From positions 11,296 through 75,295 of the forward strand of contig CALVVB010000063.1 in assembly GCA_944363735.1 (NCBI GenBank): DNA of 64,000 bases, read 5' to 3'. The notes under the pieces are model-generated. The model saw only the letters and a list, made by a program, of their open reading frames with translations. It searched no databases and was not told the DNA's origin. The DNA comes from an uncultured Bacilli bacterium (GTDB taxonomy: Bacteria; Bacillota_I; Bacilli_A; RF39; UBA660). A program made the translations under genes and the position numbers. This document shows, in pieces, positions 1 to 47,380 of this stretch (position 1 is its first letter; the number at the start of each line of letters is the position of its first letter).

Positions 1-1086
1 AATATCACGAGCAAGAGTTAAGGGATTACATGAAACATAGATAATATTTTTTACTTTTAATGATAAGAGAAAGTCTATTAACTCTTTAGAAATACCACTT
101 CTTGGAGGATCTAAAATAATAGTATCAGGAATATAATCAAGTTTATTAATAACTTTACTGACATCGCCTAAATAAAACTCTGTATTAGTAATATTATTTA
201 ACTTAGCATTATTTTTTGCATCCCTCACTGCATCTTCTACTACTTCAACACCAATTACTTTTTTAGCATAGTCACTTACCAATAAACTAATTGTACCTGT
301 ACCACAGTATAAATCATAGATAATATTACAATTTAGTTCTTTAACTAAATTAATAACTTCTTTATAAATTAAACTAATACCCTCTTTATTTACTTGAAAG
401 AAAGAGGCTTTTCTTACCATAAACTTTTTAGATAGAACATCTATCATTAAAGATGGAACACCACTGATTAGTTCATTGTTATAGTATAGGGAACTAACAG
501 TTGATGAGAAGAACTCTTTAATTGATTCTTTATCTTCCTTACCTTCTAATATTAACATAAGTTTACCATCTAAAGATTTAATAATCGCTTTAGTTAATTT
601 TTTATGTACCTTAATAAAAGAATTTAAAGAGGCGGTTAGAGTTATAATATCACTATCTAATAAATTACATTTATCTATAGGAATTAAATTATTAGTCTCT
701 TCTTCATAATAACCTAACTTATCTTCCTTAATATGAAAAGTTACTTTATTACGATAGTTATAACATTTAGTAGGAATTATCTCTAAAGAGTCTAAATTAT
801 AATTTGTATATTTAGAGAAAATATTCTTAACAGTATTCTTTTTAAATTCTAACTGTTCATCATAAGTTAAATGTCCTATCTGACAACCTCCACAATCATT
901 ATAATAAGGACAATACTTTACTTTAAGGAGATCATATCTTTTGCCTATAGAATAGTTTTTCTTATCTTTTACTAATTTAATAGAAACTTCTTCACCTAGT
1001 TTTACTTTAGGTATAAATATTACTTTATTATCAACTTTGGCAATACCTCTACCTTGATGGTCATAATCAATTATTTTAACTAACAT
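1..1086 (-). CDS. 23S rRNA (uracil-5-)-methyltransferase, RumA/RlmCD family (3' end runs off the window)
   Basis: Own translation: starts MLVKIIDYDHQGRGIAKV (TRAM-like N-terminus). Has the Cys cluster CPYYNDCGGCQ, SAM motif DLYCGTGTIS and DPPRS. This ORF is not in the supplied track because it is truncated. Confidence 0.8.
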   Translation of the reverse strand, partial: MLVKIIDYDHQGRGIAKVDNKVIFIPKVKLGEEVSIKLVKDKKNYSIGKRYDLLKVKYCPYYNDCGGCQIGHLTYDEQLEFKKNTVKNIFSKYTNYNLDSLEIIPTKCYNYRNKVTFHIKEDKLGYYEEETNNLIPIDKCNLLDSDIITLTASLNSFIKVHKKLTKAIIKSLDGKLMLILEGKEDKESIKEFFSSTVSSLYYNNELISGVPSLMIDVLSKKFMVRKASFFQVNKEGISLIYKEVINLVKELNCNIIYDLYCGTGTISLLVSDYAKKVIGVEVVEDAVRDAKNNAKLNNITNTEFYLGDVSKVINKLDYIPDTIILDPPRSGISKELIDFLLSLKVKNIIYVSCNPLTLARDI

Positions 1087-1207
1087 AAACTTCACCTACT
1101 AATAGATTACTACAAAATTTATGAATGGAAAAGTTTTATTTATTTAGTGTCGCTTGACATTTTAAGTACCAAGTTATATTATAAAAAAACAAAAAGGAGA
1201 AATAATT

Positions 1208-1588
1208 ATGTTTGAAAGAAATGATATTAATGATTTATTTTTAGCAAGTATTAGTGTTAAATATCCAGATAGCGAAATGTTAACTGATAATTTCGGCGGT
1301 ATTTTAAAAGTAAGAATAGGAGGATACGGATATACAACAATTTTAAAAAGAGAAGAAGAAAAATATATCGATTTAAATAATCCTAAAGTAGAAATAACTA
1401 CTACTAGAGATCCATTTAAAACTAGTTATACAATAGATTATATGGAACCATTAAGTAAATATTATACTAATGATGGAAAAAGAAAACAAATTTTTAGTAA
1501 TAGACAAGCGATAAAAATGGCAGAAACATATTATGATGAATTTTATAAAGATGAAAAAGAAGCACAGAAAGTAAGAGTTTATAAATAA
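1208..1588 (+). CDS. hypothetical protein
   Basis: 126-aa ORF with RBS aaaggaga upstream and a weak hairpin plus T7 downstream. I recognise no motif. Confidence 0.5.
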   Translation: MFERNDINDLFLASISVKYPDSEMLTDNFGGILKVRIGGYGYTTILKREEEKYIDLNNPKVEITTTRDPFKTSYTIDYMEPLSKYYTNDGKRKQIFSNRQAIKMAETYYDEFYKDEKEAQKVRVYK

Positions 1589-1740
1589 TTGAGGTTAAAT
1601 GCCTCTTTTTTTGTTTTAATAATATTATTTATTTTGGTAATACTAGAAATAAAATATAATGTTTATATAAGAGATTTTTAAATATAAAAAACTTGATTTT
1701 CACCAGTTTTTATCATATAATGATAAAAAGAGGTGAAAAT

Positions 1741-2331
1741 ATGATAATAACAAGTGATATAGCAAAACAATATTTAGCAAAATATTCTAATAAAAATACT
1801 AGATTATCTAGAGATGTTAGAGATGGAAAACTAATCAAGATAAGAAATGGTTTATATGAAACTGAGGCAAATACTCCTTCATATTTACTAGCTGGAAGTA
1901 TTTATGGTCCATCATACATATCTTTTGAATATGCACTTTCCTATTATGGATTAATTCCAGAAAGAGTAAGTACTATAACTTGTGCTACTTTTAATAAGAA
2001 AAAGAAAAAAAAATATGATACTCCATTTGGTACATTTACTTATAGAGATGTTCCATCATTAGTATATCCAGAAGAAATACTTTTAAAAGAAGAAAATAAT
2101 TATTCATATCAAATAGCAACTCCTGAAAAAGCTTTATGCGATAAATTATATACATTAAAATCATTAAAAAATTATTCTAATTTAGAAAAGATGTTATTTG
2201 AAGATTTACGAATAGATATAGAAGAGTTTAAAACCTTAAACACTGAAAAAATAGAAAAACTAAGTAATTTATATCATTCAAGAAATATAGTATTACTTGC
2301 TAAATATAAAAGGAGGAAAAATGATGAATAA
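1741..2331 (+). CDS. AbiEi-family antitoxin (type IV TA/abortive infection)
   Basis: Start trimmed to MIITSD behind RBS aagaggtg. RNGLYE ... PSYISFEYALSYYGLIPERV is typical of AbiEi_4 proteins. The gene overlaps the downstream toxin gene. Confidence 0.75.
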   Translation: MIITSDIAKQYLAKYSNKNTRLSRDVRDGKLIKIRNGLYETEANTPSYLLAGSIYGPSYISFEYALSYYGLIPERVSTITCATFNKKKKKKYDTPFGTFTYRDVPSLVYPEEILLKEENNYSYQIATPEKALCDKLYTLKSLKNYSNLEKMLFEDLRIDIEEFKTLNTEKIEKLSNLYHSRNIVLLAKYKRRKNDE

Positions 2332-3184
2332 TATAATAGAACAAATGCTTTCAAAATATGAAATAAAAAATGTTACTGATGAAATAAATGCTTTAAAAGA
2401 AATTATTCAAGAAATAGTATTATTAGGATTATCTAGGAGTGGATTTTTTGATAAGGCAGCATTTTATGGAGGAACTGCTTTAAGAATTTTTTATAAGTTA
2501 GATAGATTTTCAGAAGATTTAGATTTTGCCCTAATCTCCCCTAATAAAGATTTTGATTTAAGTAAATATTTTAGTTATATAGAAAAAGAACTTAAAGCCT
2601 ATGGATTAAATATGGAAGTTAATACTAAACAAAAAAGTATATCTTCTAATATAACTTCAGCCTTTGTAAAAGGTGATACATTAGAACATATCTTAAAATT
2701 TTTTCCTAATGAAGAAAGCCATAATTATGATCATATCTTAAAAAAAATTAAAATAAAATTCGAAGTTGATATTAACCCACCAGACAGTGCTACTTATGAA
2801 GACGTGTATAAATTACTACCAAGTCCACATCAAATTAAACTATATGATAAAGAATCTTTATTTGCTAGTAAAATTCATGCTATTCTATGTAGGAACTGGA
2901 AAACAAGAACTAAAGGAAGAGATTTATACGACTATATATTTTTTCTAGCTAATAATACAAGTGTTAATTTAAAACTTTTAAAGAATAAATTAATTGCATC
3001 AAATTATATAGATGCTAATAGTAAATTTGATATAAATATACTAAAAGAATTATTAATTAAGAAATTTGAAATAATTGATTATGAAGAAGCAAAAGAAGAT
3101 GTAATACCATTTATTAAAAATGTAGAAAGTTTAACTATGTGGAATAGAGATTTTTTTATCAGTATTACTGAAAAACTTAATTAA
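2321..3184 (+). CDS. AbiEii/AbiGii-family nucleotidyltransferase toxin
   Basis: FYGGTALRIFYKLDRFSEDLDF is the signature NTase motif. RBS aaaggagga precedes ATGATG. The gene is translationally coupled to AbiEi. Confidence 0.8.
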   Translation: MMNNIIEQMLSKYEIKNVTDEINALKEIIQEIVLLGLSRSGFFDKAAFYGGTALRIFYKLDRFSEDLDFALISPNKDFDLSKYFSYIEKELKAYGLNMEVNTKQKSISSNITSAFVKGDTLEHILKFFPNEESHNYDHILKKIKIKFEVDINPPDSATYEDVYKLLPSPHQIKLYDKESLFASKIHAILCRNWKTRTKGRDLYDYIFFLANNTSVNLKLLKNKLIASNYIDANSKFDINILKELLIKKFEIIDYEEAKEDVIPFIKNVESLTMWNRDFFISITEKLN

Positions 3185-3198
3185 GTAAAATTTCATGG

Positions 3199-3231
3199 AG
3201 AAGAACAGATTAAAAGTTCTTCTTTTATTTT
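3199..3231 (+). terminator. intrinsic terminator after AbiEii
   Basis: Hairpin agaagaac/gttcttct followed by tttatttt. Confidence 0.65.
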
Positions 3232-3279
3232 ATAAAATTTATTATTTTGGTAATACTAAAAGTGAAATGAGGTGAAGTG

Positions 3280-4707
3280 ATGCTTAGAGATGAGATTAAA
3301 AAAGCTTTTGGAAGCTCCACTGATTTAATTATTAGACCTTTTATTATCGATAATAGAGAAATTACTTTAGTCATGAGTGAAGTTTTAGGTAGTTCAAGTT
3401 ATGTTAATGATTTTATTTTAAGACGTCTTTTAACTATCAAGTTCCAAAGTGATGATATAGGAAGTGAACTTCTTAACTTTATTCCTACTAATAATGGTAA
3501 AATACTAAATAAATTAAGTGATATGACTGATTATATTTGTATGGGCTTCGCTCTTATTCTTTTTAGTGATAATGAATCTGAAAAAGCTATTGCAATTGAA
3601 GCTCGTGCTAGTGTTGATAGAGGAATTGGAGAAGTCAATAATGAAGCTAGTATAACGGGAAGTAAAGATGCTTTTAATGAGAATTTTAATACTAATGTTG
3701 GGCTTATTAGAAGAAGAATAAGAACTAGCGATTTATATGTAGATGGTATGTTTATAGGTAAATCTAGCAAGACTAAAATTGGTATTTTATATATGAATAA
3801 TATTGTTATTAAAGAAAATGTTGATAATATAAAAAATAAACTAAAAAAGATTAATATTGATGGCATAATTGATTCAGGTAATTTAAAGAGTTATTTAGAC
3901 AGTAAGACTAACTTTTTCTTTCCCACAATTACATCAACAGAACGTCCTGATAAAGTCGCACAATCCCTACTTGAAGGTAAGATTGCTATCGTCTCTGATA
4001 ACTCTCCTCTTGTTCTAATTACCCCTACTTTCTTTGTAGATTACCTACATACTAGTGATGATTATTATGAAAAAGCAATTAATACTTCTTTTATTAGAAT
4101 AATAAGATTTCTTGCCTTTTTAATCGCTATATTTACACCTGCTTTATACATTGCTTTAACTACTCATAATCAAGATATATTACCTCTATCATTATTCCTA
4201 AATTTTATGGAACAAAGAGAGTCAGTCCCTTTTTCTGCTTTAATAGAAGCTTTGTTTATGAGTATATCATTTGAAATATTAAGAGAAAGTGATATTAGAA
4301 AACCTGCTAGTATGGGTACATCTGTCTCTATTTTAGGGGGACTAATTCTAGGAGATGCCGCAGTTTCAGCAGGTATTATCTCTCCTATTATGATAATTGT
4401 AATATCTATATCTGCAATCTCTGGTCTTGCATTTTCATCAGTTGAAATGATTTATGCTTTAAGATGGTGGAGATTTATTATGTTATTCCTTGCTATGTTC
4501 TTTGGTATATTTGGTATCTTTGTAGGATTTATTATCTTACTTGCCTCCCTAGTCACAACATCATCACAATCTCTACCATATCTTGCACCTTTCTCTCCAT
4601 TTATTAAAGGAGAAATAAAAGACACTATTATTAAAGGAAACCACAAAAAGATAAGGTTTAGAAATCCATTACTTACTAAAAATAAAATAAGGGAGAAATC
4701 AGAATGA
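3280..4707 (+). CDS. spore germination protein, GerA(A) family
   Basis: SVDRGIGEV...GSKDAFNENFNTNVGLIRRRIR plus a C-terminal multi-TM region match the GerAA/KA family pattern. Confidence 0.85.
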   Translation: MLRDEIKKAFGSSTDLIIRPFIIDNREITLVMSEVLGSSSYVNDFILRRLLTIKFQSDDIGSELLNFIPTNNGKILNKLSDMTDYICMGFALILFSDNESEKAIAIEARASVDRGIGEVNNEASITGSKDAFNENFNTNVGLIRRRIRTSDLYVDGMFIGKSSKTKIGILYMNNIVIKENVDNIKNKLKKINIDGIIDSGNLKSYLDSKTNFFFPTITSTERPDKVAQSLLEGKIAIVSDNSPLVLITPTFFVDYLHTSDDYYEKAINTSFIRIIRFLAFLIAIFTPALYIALTTHNQDILPLSLFLNFMEQRESVPFSALIEALFMSISFEILRESDIRKPASMGTSVSILGGLILGDAAVSAGIISPIMIIVISISAISGLAFSSVEMIYALRWWRFIMLFLAMFFGIFGIFVGFIILLASLVTTSSQSLPYLAPFSPFIKGEIKDTIIKGNHKKIRFRNPLLTKNKIREKSE

Positions 4708-16535: not shown

Positions 16536-17441
16536 CTACATTAACATTGTTATTTGACTTTTAGAAAGACCTGTCGCTTTAACTATATCTTTTATAGGCA
16601 TACCTATTTTAAGAAGATTTTTAGCGATAGATTTTTTCTCATTACTAGCACCTTGTTCAATGCCTATCTTAACTCCTTTTTCTTCAGCAGTATTTATTTT
16701 AGTATTCTCTATTCTTCTTCTTTCCTCTTCTTCATCATATAAACCTATTGTATTAATGTCATAAGTTAAATTTTTTAGTTCATTTGTAACTTCCATTAAC
16801 TCTTCATCTCCTTTCGCTATCTTCTCTATTTCACTAATCTCCTTTAGTGTTAATATTAATAACTCTTTCTCTAATTTATTTAAGGTTAAGCCTCTTTTAT
16901 ACTTTTCTCTTATTAGTTTTAAATTAATATAAAACTTTCCCCATTTATCACTTTCTATTATTCCATACTTATCTCTTGATTTAAATTCTAAAAGATTCTC
17001 TCCACTTAAGAAACAATAAAAGTTATTTATATTTATCTGTATTACTTTAGGTAACTTATTATAACTATCTGTCTTTCTTAATAAATCATTTTTTATCTTA
17101 CCTAAATAAGCATCATTACGTTCAATTAATCCATCCCATTTTCTCCCATTAAACTTATAATTAATAACATAGCCATCTATATCAAAAAGAACATCTGATA
17201 CTTTCCCTTTTTCTAAAGCATTATCTATTTTATATTCTGTATTTTTCTCTTGATAAGTATTTAGTATCAACTCTTTAGGTATACCTGTTATTCTAGAGGT
17301 TAAATCTGCCCTAAACTTAGGGCATTTATCCATAATTGCTTTAAAAACACCATCATAGGTTGCAGGTACTATCTCTTTCTTTTTATCTAATTCTTTTTTT
17401 ATTTGTTCAAATCTTTGTTGTGTTATAGCCAATAGACTCAC
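16536..17441 (-). CDS. Rpn-family recombination-promoting nuclease/putative transposase (PD-(D/E)xK)
   Basis: Length, the N-terminal D..FK.IM pattern and a C-terminal helical repeat region resemble YhgA/Rpn proteins (from memory). A TTGACA-N17-TACATT promoter lies upstream. Confidence 0.55.
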   Translation of the reverse strand: MSLLAITQQRFEQIKKELDKKKEIVPATYDGVFKAIMDKCPKFRADLTSRITGIPKELILNTYQEKNTEYKIDNALEKGKVSDVLFDIDGYVINYKFNGRKWDGLIERNDAYLGKIKNDLLRKTDSYNKLPKVIQININNFYCFLSGENLLEFKSRDKYGIIESDKWGKFYINLKLIREKYKRGLTLNKLEKELLILTLKEISEIEKIAKGDEELMEVTNELKNLTYDINTIGLYDEEEERRRIENTKINTAEEKGVKIGIEQGASNEKKSIAKNLLKIGMPIKDIVKATGLSKSQITMLM

Positions 17442-18947: not shown

Positions 18948-19278
18948 AGAACTTCTCCATTTTTGTTATAATTTCTTCAATATTATCTAGATATAAACAA
19001 TTCTTTAAATTAGTAGATAGTTTATCTATTCTATAAGACAACTTACCATACTCTACATATTTAGAATATTTATTATCTTTAAAGGTAACAACATCATCAT
19101 AGAAATAGTTAATATGACATTTATTTAATAGAGATATTATTTTATTAAGAGAATTTCTTTCTATATAAAATGTTTCTCTATAAGGTTTATCTAATAAATA
19201 ACTAATAATATAACTATCATTTTTAGTTACATAAATCATTAGTCCTTTACGCATAAAATATACCAAACTATCATTCAT
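18940..19278 (-). CDS. hypothetical protein, first gene of the DGR accessory operon
   Basis: 112-aa ORF with RBS aggagag, overlapping the avd-like start by 8 nt. No recognisable family. Confidence 0.55.
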   Translation of the reverse strand: MNDSLVYFMRKGLMIYVTKNDSYIISYLLDKPYRETFYIERNSLNKIISLLNKCHINYFYDDVVTFKDNKYSKYVEYGKLSYRIDKLSTNLKNCLYLDNIEEIITKMEKFYE

Positions 19279-19306
19279 ATATTTATCACTCTCCTATCTT
19301 TCACTT

Positions 19307-19336
19307 ATTTTACAAAAAAAAAAAAAAAAACGTCAA
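19307..19336 (-). promoter_or_regulatory. sigma-A-like promoter TTGACG-(T17 G)-TAAAAT for the orf112-avd-RT operon
   Basis: Minus strand reads TTGACG tttttttttttttttttg TAAAAT, about 25 nt upstream of the RBS and ATG at 19278. The 18-nt spacer is almost entirely a T17 homopolymer. Confidence 0.6.
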
Positions 19337-19349
19337 GCGATTTTGACGT
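19314..19349 (-). terminator. intrinsic terminator ending the target-gene/TR transcript
   Basis: Minus strand reads acgtcaa-aatcgc-ttgacgt (7-bp stem) followed by a T-run. The T17 tract is 19314-19330. Confidence 0.7.
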
Positions 19350-19528
19350 AAAAATTAGGACTAACCTTTCCTTTATTTTTATAGGGTCAGATAGTGTATA
19401 AATAGTTTCATAAATATTTACAATTCTATTATCTATCTAGTCTTTAGTGTTATTAACACAAGGAAATTACCTGTTCCTTTTATCTATTCTATATAGACTT
19501 ATCTATAATGCTAGGTTTAAAAGGAAAT

Positions 19529-19613
19529 GCCGCACACTGTTCGTGTTCGAAGGACTATTGTTGTTCGTGTTACCAGTGTTGTTGACGTTACGCACGTTAG
19601 ACGTACTGTTGGT
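19529..19613 (-). repeat. DGR template repeat (TR)
   Basis: In the VR frame the minus strand reads aac agt acg tct aac gtg cgt aac gtc aac aac act ggt aac acg aac aac aat agt cct tcg aac acg aac agt gtg cgg c (10 AAC codons). It lies in a non-coding position and is homologous to two segments of the upstream gene. Confidence 0.85.
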
Positions 19614-19665
19614 AATTCCCTACTATAATTTATTTAATCTAATTAATTATAGCCTAACTTAATTA

Positions 19666-19703
19666 GTCAGGAATCTAGGAAATACATTCCCTAGATTCCT
19701 GAC
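19666..19703 (-). promoter_or_regulatory. perfect 14-bp-stem hairpin 2 nt after the target stop codon
   Basis: gtcaggaatctagg / cctagattcctgac with a 10-nt loop and no U-tract. Confidence 0.6.
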
Positions 19704-19705
19704 AC

Positions 19706-21580
19706 CTAACTACCTAGAGAAAGAACAAACGGATCGGATTTAGTACCTGTTCCTGAGGTTATCTCGACGTTAGATTTTAGATTTATTGATGGCCGCACAC
19801 CGTACAGGCGCGAAGGACTATTGCTGCTCGTGTCACCAGTGTAGCCGACGTAACGCACGTTAAACGAAGAGTATGGTGTTAAGGTCCAATAAGATGTTGT
19901 TAAACCTGTACTAGTACTTCCTCCTTTAACTGAATATCTTTCAAATTGTCCTGACATCAATTCTCCCATTCGTAGTAATCCTACTTTAGCATCTGTAGTA
20001 GATGAAGTTAAACTACTCATATTGTTGTCTGTATACTTGGCTAGTTTATATGAAGTACCACTTCCTACTGTTCCTAAATACCATGTTGTACTATCTTCTA
20101 TCATTGAACTATAACTACTACCCACGTAATTTGTTAGATAATTTCCATTTAAGAATGTACCTATTGTATTGGTACTTGAAAATGTTGTATTACTTCCAAA
20201 GGCGCTTGTTATAAACGTATCAGAATTCTTTAACGGTTCGGCACTTACTATCTTTGTACCTGTTCCATTTTCATGGCTTACTATTCTATATAGATTATTT
20301 TCGCCACTTCCAAATCTTATATATTCTCCACTATATCTACTTGAAAGTAGTGTTCCCGTGAGGTCTGTATCATTATCTCCATTCAAGCGATAAGGGTTAT
20401 CTGCTGTACCATAGCCATCTACAATTTTAACGCTGGATTTTAGATTTATTGATGGCCGCACACCGTACAGGCTCGAAGGAATATCGTAGTTCGTGTGACC
20501 AGAGTAGGTGACGTTACGTACGTAAGACGCACTGTATGGCGTTAAAGTCCACCAATAAAGTCCATTATTTAAATAACCATTACTATACGTTGTTTCATGA
20601 TAACTAGATTGATATTCATACATATTTAGTAAACCTACTGGTGCTGTTACAGTTGCCTCCCCATTTGGTCTTGTTATACTTCCTAAACTAGTTGCATCAA
20701 GTGTTGCATCCCATACTGCATCTGTTACAATGAACTTCTCATAATCTCTTAAGTTACCAAGAAAGCCATCTACTGTTGTATCATTGAGCCAATCTTCCAT
20801 ATAACTTCCTTCAAAAGCTGTATTACCACTTGCATTATATGTAGTTGCACTTATATTCCATTGTGTTACTAACTTAACTGTCTTTGCTTCATTATTTACA
20901 GATACTGCTCTCCAAAGTTTTCCACTATACCATATATAGTTATTAGGATCTTCTCCTGTTATGAAGGTATCAACTCCATCATCATATTGATTTTCCTTTG
21001 GTATATTATTAAGTAGAGCATTAGATACTGTAACGCCTTGTTCTCTATCATAACTTGTTACTACTATCTTACTCTTATATTCTTTACCTTGTGCACTATT
21101 ATCAGCATTATAATCTAACCACATCCATAATTGATATGTTACTTTATCACTTGGTTTTAATGTCGCTTCACTAGTTATATCAAATGAACCTGTTCCATAA
21201 CCACTAACCTTTACTACTCCACTATCATATCCATTATCTCCTGTTAGCCTCATCTTTAAATAAGAATTTGGTAAGGTATTATTAACATCTTCTTCTAATG
21301 ATACATGATAATATGCATTTATATTACCTGTATTAGTTATAGTAAAAGTATAAGGTGTAGTCTTTTGACCTTGTGCATCTGTCATAGGTGCTACATTATC
21401 TAAATTAATATTATTTCCTTCAGCAAAATCAACTTTTAATATCCCTGCTGTTAAACTAACTTTTTTATCTCCTTCTAAAGTCATTGTAAGTAAAGCATAA
21501 CTTGCCCCTGCTAAAACTATAACACTTATTACAATCGTTACTATTACTAATGCAATATATTTTTTTCTTGATTTATCCAT
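19706..21580 (-). CDS. DGR target protein, membrane-anchored, with two tandem VR-bearing modules
   Basis: N-terminal TM segment (YIALVIVTIVISVIVLAGA). Two modules end in ...WWTLTPYS..(VR)..LYGVRPSINLKS, and each contains a TR-homologous segment. Confidence 0.85.
   Translation of the reverse strand: MDKSRKKYIALVIVTIVISVIVLAGASYALLTMTLEGDKKVSLTAGILKVDFAEGNNINLDNVAPMTDAQGQKTTPYTFTITNTGNINAYYHVSLEEDVNNTLPNSYLKMRLTGDNGYDSGVVKVSGYGTGSFDITSEATLKPSDKVTYQLWMWLDYNADNSAQGKEYKSKIVVTSYDREQGVTVSNALLNNIPKENQYDDGVDTFITGEDPNNYIWYSGKLWRAVSVNNEAKTVKLVTQWNISATTYNASGNTAFEGSYMEDWLNDTTVDGFLGNLRDYEKFIVTDAVWDATLDATSLGSITRPNGEATVTAPVGLLNMYEYQSSYHETTYSNGYLNNGLYWWTLTPYSASYVRNVTYSGHTNYDIPSSLYGVRPSINLKSSVKIVDGYGTADNPYRLNGDNDTDLTGTLLSSRYSGEYIRFGSGENNLYRIVSHENGTGTKIVSAEPLKNSDTFITSAFGSNTTFSSTNTIGTFLNGNYLTNYVGSSYSSMIEDSTTWYLGTVGSGTSYKLAKYTDNNMSSLTSSTTDAKVGLLRMGELMSGQFERYSVKGGSTSTGLTTSYWTLTPYSSFNVRYVGYTGDTSSNSPSRLYGVRPSINLKSNVEITSGTGTKSDPFVLSLGS
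19792..19876 (-). repeat. variable repeat VR1 (C-terminal module)
   Basis: Aligns to TR over about 82 nt. By hand alignment, 15 of 18 mismatches fall at TR adenines on the coding strand. Encodes YSSFNVRYVGYTGDTSSNSPSRLYGVR. Confidence 0.85.
20455..20539 (-). repeat. variable repeat VR2 (internal module)
   Basis: Aligns to TR over about 82 nt. By hand alignment, 13 of 16 mismatches fall at TR adenines. Encodes YSASYVRNVTYSGHTNYDIPSSLYGVR. Confidence 0.85.
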
Positions 21581-45786: not shown

Positions 45787-45817
45787 AAAAAAAAGAAAAA
45801 AGAGGTAAGTCCTCTTA
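45787..45817 (-). terminator. intrinsic terminator after the target-paralog remnant
   Basis: Minus strand reads aagagg-actta-cctctt followed by a T-rich run. Confidence 0.65.
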
Positions 45818-47380
45818 ATTAGATAATTCGATAGTAAATGGATCTGTTTTAGTTCCTGTTCCTCCAGTTATTACAACATTAGATTTTAGATTCATGGATG
45901 GACGCACACATAAACTAACAGACAAATTATACATAGTAACACCATATGAATGATTGCCGGAAATAACACTTACTGAACCTGTTGAATCAATATATGGTGT
46001 TAAGAGAAAATAATTATCTATATACATATTAAAGTTAAATTGTTGTTGCATTAATTCTCCATATCTTAATAATCCTACTTTAGCAGTTGTTGTATTTGAA
46101 GTTAATATGCTTTCACTTGGATCCGTATATTTTGCTAGTTTATAATATGGTGTATCTGCTCCTACAGTTCCAAGATACCATGTTGTATTATCTTCTATCA
46201 TATTCACTTGCTCACTTGTCAAGTATTCTCCACTTGTTAAATATTCTCCATTTAAGAATGTACCTATTGTATTCGTACTTGAAAAATATTATTACCACCA
46301 AACAACATTAATTTAAAACTCCCAGAATCTTTCAATGGTTCTGCACTGGTTATTTTAGTTAAACCTTCTGTTTCATGGCTTACTATTTGATATAAATTGT
46401 TTTCTCCTGTTCCAAATCTTATATATTCTCCACTATATCTTGTATTTAGAAGACTACCAGATAAATCACTATCATTATCTCCTTCTAATCTGTATGGATC
46501 ATCTGCTGTTCCATTTCCACTTACTATCTTTACATCACTTTTTAAATTTATAGCTGGACGAATATTAGTACTAACTTCTGAAAAAGTTTCCATACTAGGA
46601 TAACAATAGGAAATATAAATTATAGTATTGGCAGTTTGTGGTGTTAAAGTATACCAACTTGATTTTGTGTTTAAATATCCATTATCATAGGTTGTACCTC
46701 TATAACTAGTTTGATATTCATATAAATTAAGTAGTCCTACTGCATCTGTTACTACTGTTGTTCCGTTTGGTCTTGTTATACTTCCATACTTATACCTCAT
46801 TTCTCTATCTAACTTGATCTCCTGTTATTCTAAGTTTTCCTTTCCAAACTTGACCACCAAAATCTCCATCTATTTCTATTGTCGGCCACACTCTTAAAAC
46901 ATAACTATTTTCTTCTCCTCTAGTTAATGTTCCCTTATCTAAAATTCTAGAACCATCTACCCCTAAACTCTCTAAATATTTGGCAGATCCTACACTATCA
47001 TTTTTATCTAAACTATACTTTAAATACATATCATCTAATTGAACCTCTGGAGAAGTTATTTCAATATTATCTAAATAGATTGCATAATTTACATCTGCAG
47101 TACCAGTATTTTCTAAAGTAAAATTATAACCTGTCAAAGCTAATCCCTCACTATCAGTTAAAGGATACGTATCCTCCAAATTAATAGTATTACCTTCATT
47201 TAAAGTTAATTCTAAAGTTCCAAGAGTAATAATATTTTCACTACCTTGTCTACTATAACTAAAGGCTGCAAATGATAATGCTATTATTACTATTAACAAC
47301 ACAAATAATAAAACTATTAAAAATATTTTATTTCTTTTTTCTTTCATATTCTCACCTACATTATACATAAAGTATAACAT
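45815..47380 (-). pseudogene. disrupted paralog of the DGR target protein (three ORF fragments)
   Basis: The 191-, 178- and 135-aa ORFs are collinear with the N-terminal, middle and C-terminal parts of the 19706-21580 product. About 130 aa are missing at 46800-46807, with a stop and frame change there. There is a +1 shift at the A5 run 46282-46286, where the intact gene has A4. Confidence 0.65.

Follow-up and report, generated by a model that had tools for sequence, protein, structure and literature searches.

A putative composite terminator-promoter junction built on a variable poly-T tract in a diversity-generating retroelement of uncultured gut Bacilli

To our knowledge, diversity-generating retroelements (DGRs) are the only dedicated protein-diversifying systems known in bacteria, and we know of hardly any study of how their activity is controlled in natural hosts. 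Phase variation through simple-sequence repeats (SSRs) in a promoter spacer is established for the poly(A) run of Mycoplasma hyorhinis vlp, the poly-G/C runs of Neisseria meningitidis porA and opc, the TA repeats of Haemophilus influenzae hif and the poly-C run of Bordetella pertussis fim, and overlapping arrangements of terminators and promoters are known from the Escherichia coli frd terminator and the ampC promoter/attenuator region. Phase variation by homopolymer and other SSR tracts has been the subject of general reviews (PMC11868660, PMC2831843), and full-text searches of the literature turned up no DGR described as homopolymer-controlled or phase-variable. Here we analyse a stretch of 64,000 nucleotides of contig CALVVB010000063.1, from an uncultured Bacilli bacterium (the whole stretch is called the window below), which carries on its minus strand a complete DGR in the order target gene with two variable repeats (VRs), hairpin, template repeat (TR), 177-nt spacer, hairpin with T-run, orf112, avd and the reverse transcriptase (RT) gene. 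Our subject is the run of 17 T's (T17) that separates the TR and its spacer from the accessory operon orf112-avd-RT.

In the DGR of Bordetella phage BPP-1, whose RNA comprises the 3' end of avd, the TR and Sp, the Sp element that follows the TR recruits RT-Avd and primes cDNA synthesis, with priming inside Sp and extension into the TR, away from the 3' end of the RNA (PMC12875486). The present locus resembles that of BPP-1 (PMC12875486, PMC5703328) in having a structured, conserved spacer of 140-180 nt after the TR, adenine-specific differences between TR and VR, a hairpin after the VR, and an RT gene together with an avd gene, here a putative one. It differs in that the order runs target, TR-Sp, orf112, avd, RT, which places TR and Sp ahead of the accessory genes instead of between avd and RT, in that a predicted terminator parts the template RNA from the protein genes, and in the possession of an extra open reading frame (ORF), orf112, and of two VRs in one target. 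In Trichodesmium erythraeum, the TR belongs to a discrete, separately transcribed non-coding RNA of 265 nt whose ends have been mapped experimentally (PMC4143802), and a transcript of the same kind, of about 300 nt, is predicted here; however, the TR lies downstream of RT in that system, and no homopolymer junction is described there.

Our reading of the T17 region, to which we assign a probability of roughly 0.55, is that of a composite junction in which terminator and promoter are joined by a hypermutable tract. The TR and the 177-nt spacer would be transcribed by RNA polymerase that comes in from the target gene or starts at a promoter immediately ahead of the TR, and the hairpin followed by at least 7 U's would end transcription and yield a discrete TR-Sp RNA of roughly 300 nt. 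The conserved TAnnnT -10 element, with the 3' arm of the hairpin (TTGACG or TTGATT) as its -35, would start the orf112-avd-RT mRNA about 20 nt before the ATG. T's beyond the first eight or so would be dispensable for termination and would set the distance between -35 and -10, which is 18 nt here; a run of at least 15 T's would slip in replication, letting its length drift between strains, and such drift could raise, lower or silence transcription of the accessory genes and thereby mutagenic homing. The parts of this proposal differ in strength. That the hairpin and T-run act as a terminator is very probable, and a promoter at the TAAAAT hexamer is likely; a length-dependent switch of RT/Avd expression is a distinct possibility that falls short of being probable.

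On the minus strand, the hairpin passes directly into T17, which is followed by G (19313), TAAAAT, AAGTGAAAGATA, GGAG (19294..19291) and the orf112 start codon (ATG at 19278; other coordinates in Table 1). T17 and the G together make an 18-nt gap between the -35-like and -10-like hexamers, and a pattern scanner reported both a terminator-like site (7 pairs, 3 of them G-C, loop of 6) and a promoter-like site, TTGACG-18-TAAAAT, at this position. The hairpin alone folds at -7.3 kcal/mol (z = -3.25 against shuffles). A bidirectional terminator was considered and rejected, the opposite strand having no T-run after the stem. A first-pass annotation of this DNA had already read the order of hairpin, T17, G and TAAAAT from the minus strand, and we confirm it; the distance from the TR, put there at about 180 nt, is 177 nt from the TR end to the tract. 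Its placing of the -10 about 25 nt before the ribosome-binding site (RBS) has to be corrected, the hexamer lying 12 nt before GGAG and 28 nt before the ATG. The run (A17 on the plus strand) is the sole homopolymer longer than 9 in the window, where the next longest runs of A or T reach 9, and across 162 kb of related loci no homopolymer other than this tract reaches 10 internally.

The junction was compared in about 90 contigs, comprising 10 with an identical orf112, 22 species-level genome loci, one metagenome contig and about 60 from eight further orf112 lineages. A protein-pattern scan of metagenome contigs did not find relatives, and a DNA-pattern scan of them gave 106 stretches of which only one (L088) was confirmed as a relative by tblastn. 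The arrangement Sp, hairpin, T-run, 1-3 nt, TAnnnT, AAG..RBS, orf112 is common to all canonical loci. Across the sample, the hairpin always abuts the T-run and the run is never shorter than 7 T's. The hairpin itself comes in the window's type (group A), GTCAA-loop-TTGAC with a folding energy of -7 to -8 kcal/mol, and in a commoner type (group B) with an extra 12-bp hairpin in the loop, which has 22 pairs at -22 to -23 kcal/mol and closes its stem with TCAAG/CTTGA against the T-run, 97% of cells being paired across 11 variants. In canonical relatives the right arm TTGA is invariant, and the left arm is GTCAA, GTTAA or ATCAAG, with pairing kept through G-U or A-U. Covariation of the terminal hairpin is weak (2 compensatory pairs, with 8 of 500 shuffles as good), so that an RNA hairpin and a palindromic protein site are not separable on this ground. 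As in intrinsic terminators generally, the hairpin closes a non-coding RNA gene and leads directly into 7 or more T's of the coding strand; unlike in those, the U-tract is 2-3 times longer than any other in the genome, and the 3' arm of the stem doubles as a -35-like hexamer.

Beyond the run, the hexamer occurs in seven variants (TAAAAT, TAAACT, TAGAAT, TATGTT, TACATT, TAAATT and TACAGT) in which positions 1, 2 and 6 are constant and positions 3-5 vary freely, the distribution of information that marks a -10 element. The group B hexamer is always preceded by TGn (n = A, T, C or G), that is, by an extended -10, and in group A, which has no canonical extended -10, a G abuts the hexamer; an extended -10 was considered for the window's own junction and rejected, its TG being one base too near TAAAAT. 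Two contigs (L001, at 2952-2975, and L193) have no G between tract and -10, and L001 additionally has no TAA, TAAAAT becoming T-run+AATAAG; the change in L001 may be a genuine deletion at the edge of the tract that kills the promoter, or else a mistake of the assembly.

The spacer that precedes the junction is better conserved than the flanking proteins: it is 90-97% identical in most loci and 74-87% identical in the most divergent ones, against 51-62% for the target proteins and 63-92% for the orf112 proteins of the species compared. RNAalifold predicted 49 pairs from 16 sequences, 11 of them with compensatory double changes, and Rfam gave no family for the TR-Sp region, only two sub-threshold chance matches. 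By analogy with BPP-1, the spacer is expected to be the counterpart of Sp, and it is a candidate for a new family of DGR Sp RNAs. A terminator directly after such an element would make biological sense, because Sp serves RT-Avd and cDNA synthesis in BPP-1 and the TR RNA of Trichodesmium is discrete. On the other side of the TR, GGCTATAAT is conserved in most relatives, with TATAAG in L028-L030, and its TATAAT in the window is a candidate -10 for a separate promoter of the TR-Sp RNA.

The length of the tract ranges from 7 to 22 in relatives. In contigs spanning the junction, the run has 17 T's in the window and elsewhere 7 (L027), 8 (L012, L015), 9 (L025, L028, L088), 10 (L029, L032), 13 (L024), 14 (L016), 15 (L019), 16 (L022), 17 (L031), 18 (L001, L011, L023), 19 (L021, L030) or 20 (L002, L014). 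When the window is aligned with strains that match it at 99% identity or more, over 6.3, 4.7 and 3.4 kb with 17-35 substitutions, the tract is the only indel. When contigs that share an identical orf112 protein and come from independent studies are grouped as lineages, the run is variable in P0010 (T15, T18 in two contigs, T20 and T22), P0005 (T17 in two, T18 and T21), P0031 (T18 in two, T19 in seven, and T21) and P0025 (T16 to T18), and invariant in P0029 (T8 in 9 of 9 contigs), P0050 (T10 in 10 of 10), P0048 (T8 in 3 of 3) and P0053 (T15 in 4 of 4). Variation within lineages is thus seen at 16 T's or more, and constancy at 8, 10 and 15. At least 10 contigs break off inside a long tract or no more than about 25 nt from one, as against none of those in the T8 or T10 lineages. 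Such frequent breaks would agree with reversible, high-frequency changes of length within one population, without being specific to them. Judged from these comparisons, the tract is a real, locus-specific hypervariable site whose variability depends on its length.

If the 3' arm of the hairpin is taken as the -35, a run of n T's implies a spacer of n+1 nt in group A and of n nt in group B. Spacings in the long-tract class are then mostly 18-19 nt (range 13-23) and those in the short class 7-12 nt, and we know of no sigma-70-type promoter that tolerates a spacing of 7-12 nt. A model in which the tract sets the promoter spacer predicts that long tracts go with intact operons, because a collapsed tract would mean a silent operon and then decay, and a pure terminator model makes no such prediction. 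Scored by lineage for intact orf112, avd and RT reading frames, operons are intact with at least 13 T's in the window lineage, P0010, P0005/L014, P0031, P0025/L019, L016, L021, L024 and L030. Disrupted operons with short tracts are those of P0029 (T8; avd truncated and RT replaced by an IS200-like gene), P0050/L032 (T10; orf112 frameshift in 15 contigs), P0048 (T8; all genes broken), L015 (T8), L027 (T7), L029 (T10) and L025 (T9; TR lost). In all, intact lineages divide into 9 long and 1 short and disrupted ones into 4 long and 7 short (Fisher two-sided p = 0.024; 0.031 with an RT-less remnant locus added, 0.062 with non-canonical junctions also added). The switch gains some support from this, because long tracts accompany intact operons and cluster near 17-19. 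For the first-pass annotation, the association (p 0.024-0.062) counts in favour of its proposal, as does the kept succession of structured spacer, hairpin and at least 7 T's in canonical relatives, which supports the intrinsic terminator it had postulated for a discrete TR-Sp RNA. An invariant tract across relatives, which it had named as evidence against itself, is not what we see, with 7-22 T's among relatives and no other indel between near-identical strains. Its promoter is supported as far as the TAnnnT -10 is concerned, which is kept after the tract through all seven variants; the case for the spacing is weakened, distances to the -35-like hexamer running from 8 to 23 nt with a mode at 18-19, and not at the 17 nt it had regarded as optimal. 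The reversible ON/OFF switching that it proposed, and the insulation of RT/Avd expression from the TR RNA, are conjectural.

Several observations weigh against the composite junction, and most of all against a dependence on length. Promoter-like matches are at chance level (142 in 20 kb, where 147 are expected, and 33 in 5 kb, where 35.8 are expected), and because the consensus matches at chance frequency in AT-rich DNA, the significance of the junction promoter rests on its conservation across species. Only about a third of the species-level loci have a spacing within 16-19 nt, the modal value exceeds the 17-nt optimum, and spacings of 13-14 and 21-23 nt occur in apparently intact loci. One intact operon has a short tract (L012, T8), apparently intact ones have T13 (L024) and T14 (L016), and disrupted operons with long tracts are found in P0053 (T15), L011 (T18), L022 (T16) and L031 (T17), as well as at the RT-less remnant locus (L003-L008), with at least 22 T's. 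The lineages behind the association with integrity are phylogenetically non-independent, and frameshifts in metagenome-assembled genomes (MAGs) may be errors. A TGn extended -10 lowers the dependence on a -35 in known sigma-70/sigmaA promoters, and that of group B could work without any -35, making length irrelevant. Much of this fits the main rival explanation, plausible though on the doubtful side, in which the junction is a terminator and nothing else: the hairpin and the first eight or so T's would end the target/TR-Sp transcript, additional T's would be neutral slippage, and orf112-avd-RT would be expressed independently of length, either by read-through or with the -10 (or extended -10) as sole promoter element. 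All lengths from 7 to 22 would suffice for termination, the minimum seen being exactly 7, and the spacings vary far past what -35/-10 promoters tolerate. Against it, neither the window nor the 162 kb of relatives has another terminator-like site or homopolymer beyond 9, whereas this tract reaches 13-22 in many lineages; its long forms cluster about 17-19 and go with intact operons; and the right arm TTGA has remained invariant while the left arm changed.

The tract could instead be a recombination or insertion hot spot, or the boundary of a cassette, T-run and orf112-avd-RT (with or without the Rpn-like gene that follows RT in most loci and encodes a PD-(D/E)XK protein) moving or recombining as a module, with poly-T as joint or mobile-element target and its length as a scar. 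Homology upstream does end exactly at the tract in L003-5/8, L009, L013, L017, L152, L189 and L191, where tract, -10, RBS and orf112 are kept, and L020 (MAG BRZ_NN__bin51) has a 3.2-kb element (783-3990) inside the tract, which is flanked at its ends by inverted repeats (ATGTGAAGTATTTAGTTATGTTAA) and has a row of three genes for tyrosine recombinases on the opposite strand; on one side of this element lies hairpin-T12 and on the other T8-TGATACATT-RBS-orf112-avd-RT. We nevertheless regard this explanation as improbable: most non-canonical junctions are within 50-130 nt of contig ends, where a low-complexity run may have led to chimeric assembly, most loci are canonical, with identical flanks that differ only in the number of T's, and the conserved hairpin and -10 would be left unexplained. 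For the composite junction, the same broken junctions, L020 included, count as evidence of an independent promoter, tying the -10 to the accessory operon with which it stays, subject to the reservation that many of them lie near contig ends and may be chimeric. Still less credence can be given to a technical artefact, in which the true length would be fixed and both polymorphism and contig breaks would be produced by polymerase slippage during the library PCR, by the sequencing and by the way de Bruijn graphs behave at homopolymers. Runs of T27, T37, T49 and T65 in some contigs are clearly assembler products, and differences of 1-2 T's lie within known Illumina error for long A/T runs; as such differences, and contig breaks at runs of at least 15 T's, are expected Illumina and de Bruijn effects, only larger differences are secure, a limit that also bears on our own reading. 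But independent studies and different assemblers reproduce the division into 7-10 and 13-22 within lineages (T8 in 9 contigs, T10 in 10, T15 in 4, T19 in 7), a spread of 15-22 within one lineage exceeds stutter, and the tract is present in every assembly. Equally improbable is a role at the level of the RNA or of the retroelement, with a long 3' U-tail of the TR-Sp RNA needed by RT-Avd, or with tract expansion as a by-product of the DGR RT. The one point in its favour is that long tracts go with intact operons; intrinsic termination normally frees the RNA within the first 7-9 U's, which leaves further T's out of it, a long tract is found at the RT-less remnant locus too, and in BPP-1 cDNA is primed inside Sp and runs into the TR, away from the 3' end (PMC12875486).

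To return to the composite junction, its likeness to SSR switches is one of sequence and consists in a long mononucleotide run between -35-like and -10-like hexamers that is the most indel-prone site and differs between close strains; like phase-variable promoters, T17 presents a run of at least about 9 within the core promoter whose length is polymorphic between identical flanks (differences of 1-2 T's counting as technical noise). With the vlp system of M. hyorhinis it shares a low-GC host, here a relative of the Mollicutes. In contrast to these switches, the run is predicted to double as the U-tract of an upstream terminator, the genes in question are DGR RT and Avd and not a surface antigen, and spacings are mostly 18-19 nt or outside the working range. 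As in the frd/ampC region of E. coli, one short intergenic segment would end the upstream unit and belong to the downstream promoter region, although the two layouts are not alike in their details and no hypermutable tract is known to take part there.

Table 1. Features of the DGR and its junction in the window (positions counted from the first nucleotide of the window).
Feature	Position	Strand	Basis or remark
DGR reverse transcriptase gene, 313 aa	17696..18637	-	RVT_1, E = 2e-20 (Pfam)
Avd-like accessory gene, 114 aa	18603..18947	-	weak bAvd match; between orf112 and RT
orf112, first gene of the accessory operon, 112 codons	18940..19278	-	ATG at 19278
Shine-Dalgarno GGAG of orf112	19291..19294	-	sequence; AGGAG conserved in relatives
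Putative -10 hexamer TAAAAT	19307..19312	-	sequence
T17 homopolymer (A17 on the plus strand)	19314..19330	-	sequence; first T pairs in the stem
-35-like hexamer TTGACG, 3' arm of the hairpin	19336-19331	-	pattern scan
7-bp predicted terminator-stem hairpin ACGTCAA-AATCGC-TTGACGT	19330..19349	-	pattern scan, fold
Conserved structured spacer, 177 nt, non-coding, Sp-like	19350..19526	-	comparison, RNAalifold
Template repeat (TR)	19527..19612	-	adenine-specific mismatches against both VRs
TATAAT, perfect, about 35 nt upstream of the TR, within a small AT hairpin	19646..19651	-	sequence
17-bp perfect hairpin directly 3' of the target stop codon, without T-run	19666..19703	-	fold
DGR target gene, 624 aa, signal/transmembrane N-terminus, DUF6273, exported	19706..21580	-	ORF list, Pfam
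VR1, C-terminal repeat of the target gene	about 19792-19866	-	TR match
VR2, internal DUF6273-like repeat of the target gene	about 20455-20535	-	TR match

The window is bacterial chromosome of 25% GC with genes for UvrC and the D-Ala-D-Ala carboxypeptidase DacA (Pfam), which led us to reject a phage origin; the 4-kb DGR had no megablast match in a phage database. Its relatives are MAGs from gut samples labelled uncultured Bacilli, 'Tenericutes' or Candidatus Onthousia, and the organism is itself "Onthousia"-like. An RVT_1 gene adjoins TR/VR pairs with adenine-specific differences, the hallmark of a DGR, and in the alignment one TR matches both VRs of a single target gene, with mismatches mostly at TR adenines. 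A few VR1 and VR2 sites differ among three near-identical strains (at least 99% identical), which suggests that the DGR has been active recently, because its VRs differ between such close relatives. The hairpin after the target gene folds at -27.1 kcal/mol (z = -7), and in relatives its stems have other sequences with pairing kept, around a loop that is conserved and ATGTATT-like. In its position as in its form it recalls the hairpin/cruciform that is required for target recognition in other DGRs and whose role after the VR has been described (PMC3240598). A DUF6273-type paralogue of the target protein, encoded at about 45800-47300 on the minus strand, is 29-62% identical over segments, has no detectable TR match and could be a former or non-diversified member of the family.

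Among the accessory genes, orf112 has no Pfam hit and is restricted to the clade, its 53 homologues being at least 63% identical and all adjoining avd-RT. In every case it heads the avd-RT operon, and its rate of evolution is higher than that of avd or RT; at least two lineages with intact avd and RT have a disrupted orf112 as a fixed state. An AlphaFold2 model built from 17 homologues was unusable (mean predicted local distance difference test score, pLDDT, of 48.5). The 114-aa frame between orf112 and RT overlaps both of its neighbours and matches bAvd at E = 0.009 and 16.9 bits, under the Pfam cutoff of 40; its size and position fit an Avd. After RT, at 16536-17441 on the minus strand, lies a PD-(D/E)XK_2/Rpn-like 'transposase' gene with a C-terminal helix-turn-helix, whose homologues downstream of RT in most related loci are 39-100% identical and which may be part of the cassette.

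In the window's species, L003, L004, L005 and L008 hold a second, RT-less copy of the cassette, in contigs that all four end in or near very long poly-T. This copy consists of orf112 with an identical protein, an Avd-like ORF with a diverging C-terminus and a fragment of the Rpn-like gene, followed by acetate kinase; L004 is from the same sample as L001 and has the same coverage, and the species thus seems to carry an intact DGR plus a remnant. Mobile elements have disrupted the accessory operon independently in L009 (763-3291), L163 (1368-1739) and L186 (1-1416). At that position in L009, a truncated RT of 237 aa precedes an ORF of 438 aa, which likewise matches RVT_1; a T8 lineage has an IS200/IS605 Y1 transposase in place of RT, and the P0048 lineage has Mutator-type transposases upstream.

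A practical consequence of the poly-T tract is that it breaks short-read assemblies exactly at the DGR. Independently of any switch, the locus presents a DGR architecture in which the TR and a covarying 177-nt spacer are predicted to form a separate, terminated transcript, and such an architecture would help in the annotation of DGR RNAs and in the engineering of compact DGRs. More tentatively, and on balance we think it rather unlikely in this full form, the junction may be a contingency switch over DGR mutagenesis, conserved in a clade of gut Bacilli, in which one poly-T run both ends the TR-Sp RNA and sets the geometry of the orf112-avd-RT promoter; cells would stochastically toggle hypermutation of a surface protein, and collapse of the run to 10 T's or fewer would lock it off and precede decay of the retroelement. 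If the length of the tract does gate the expression of RT and Avd, these bacteria would practise bet-hedging in two layers, with a simple-sequence switch placed over a targeted hypermutator.

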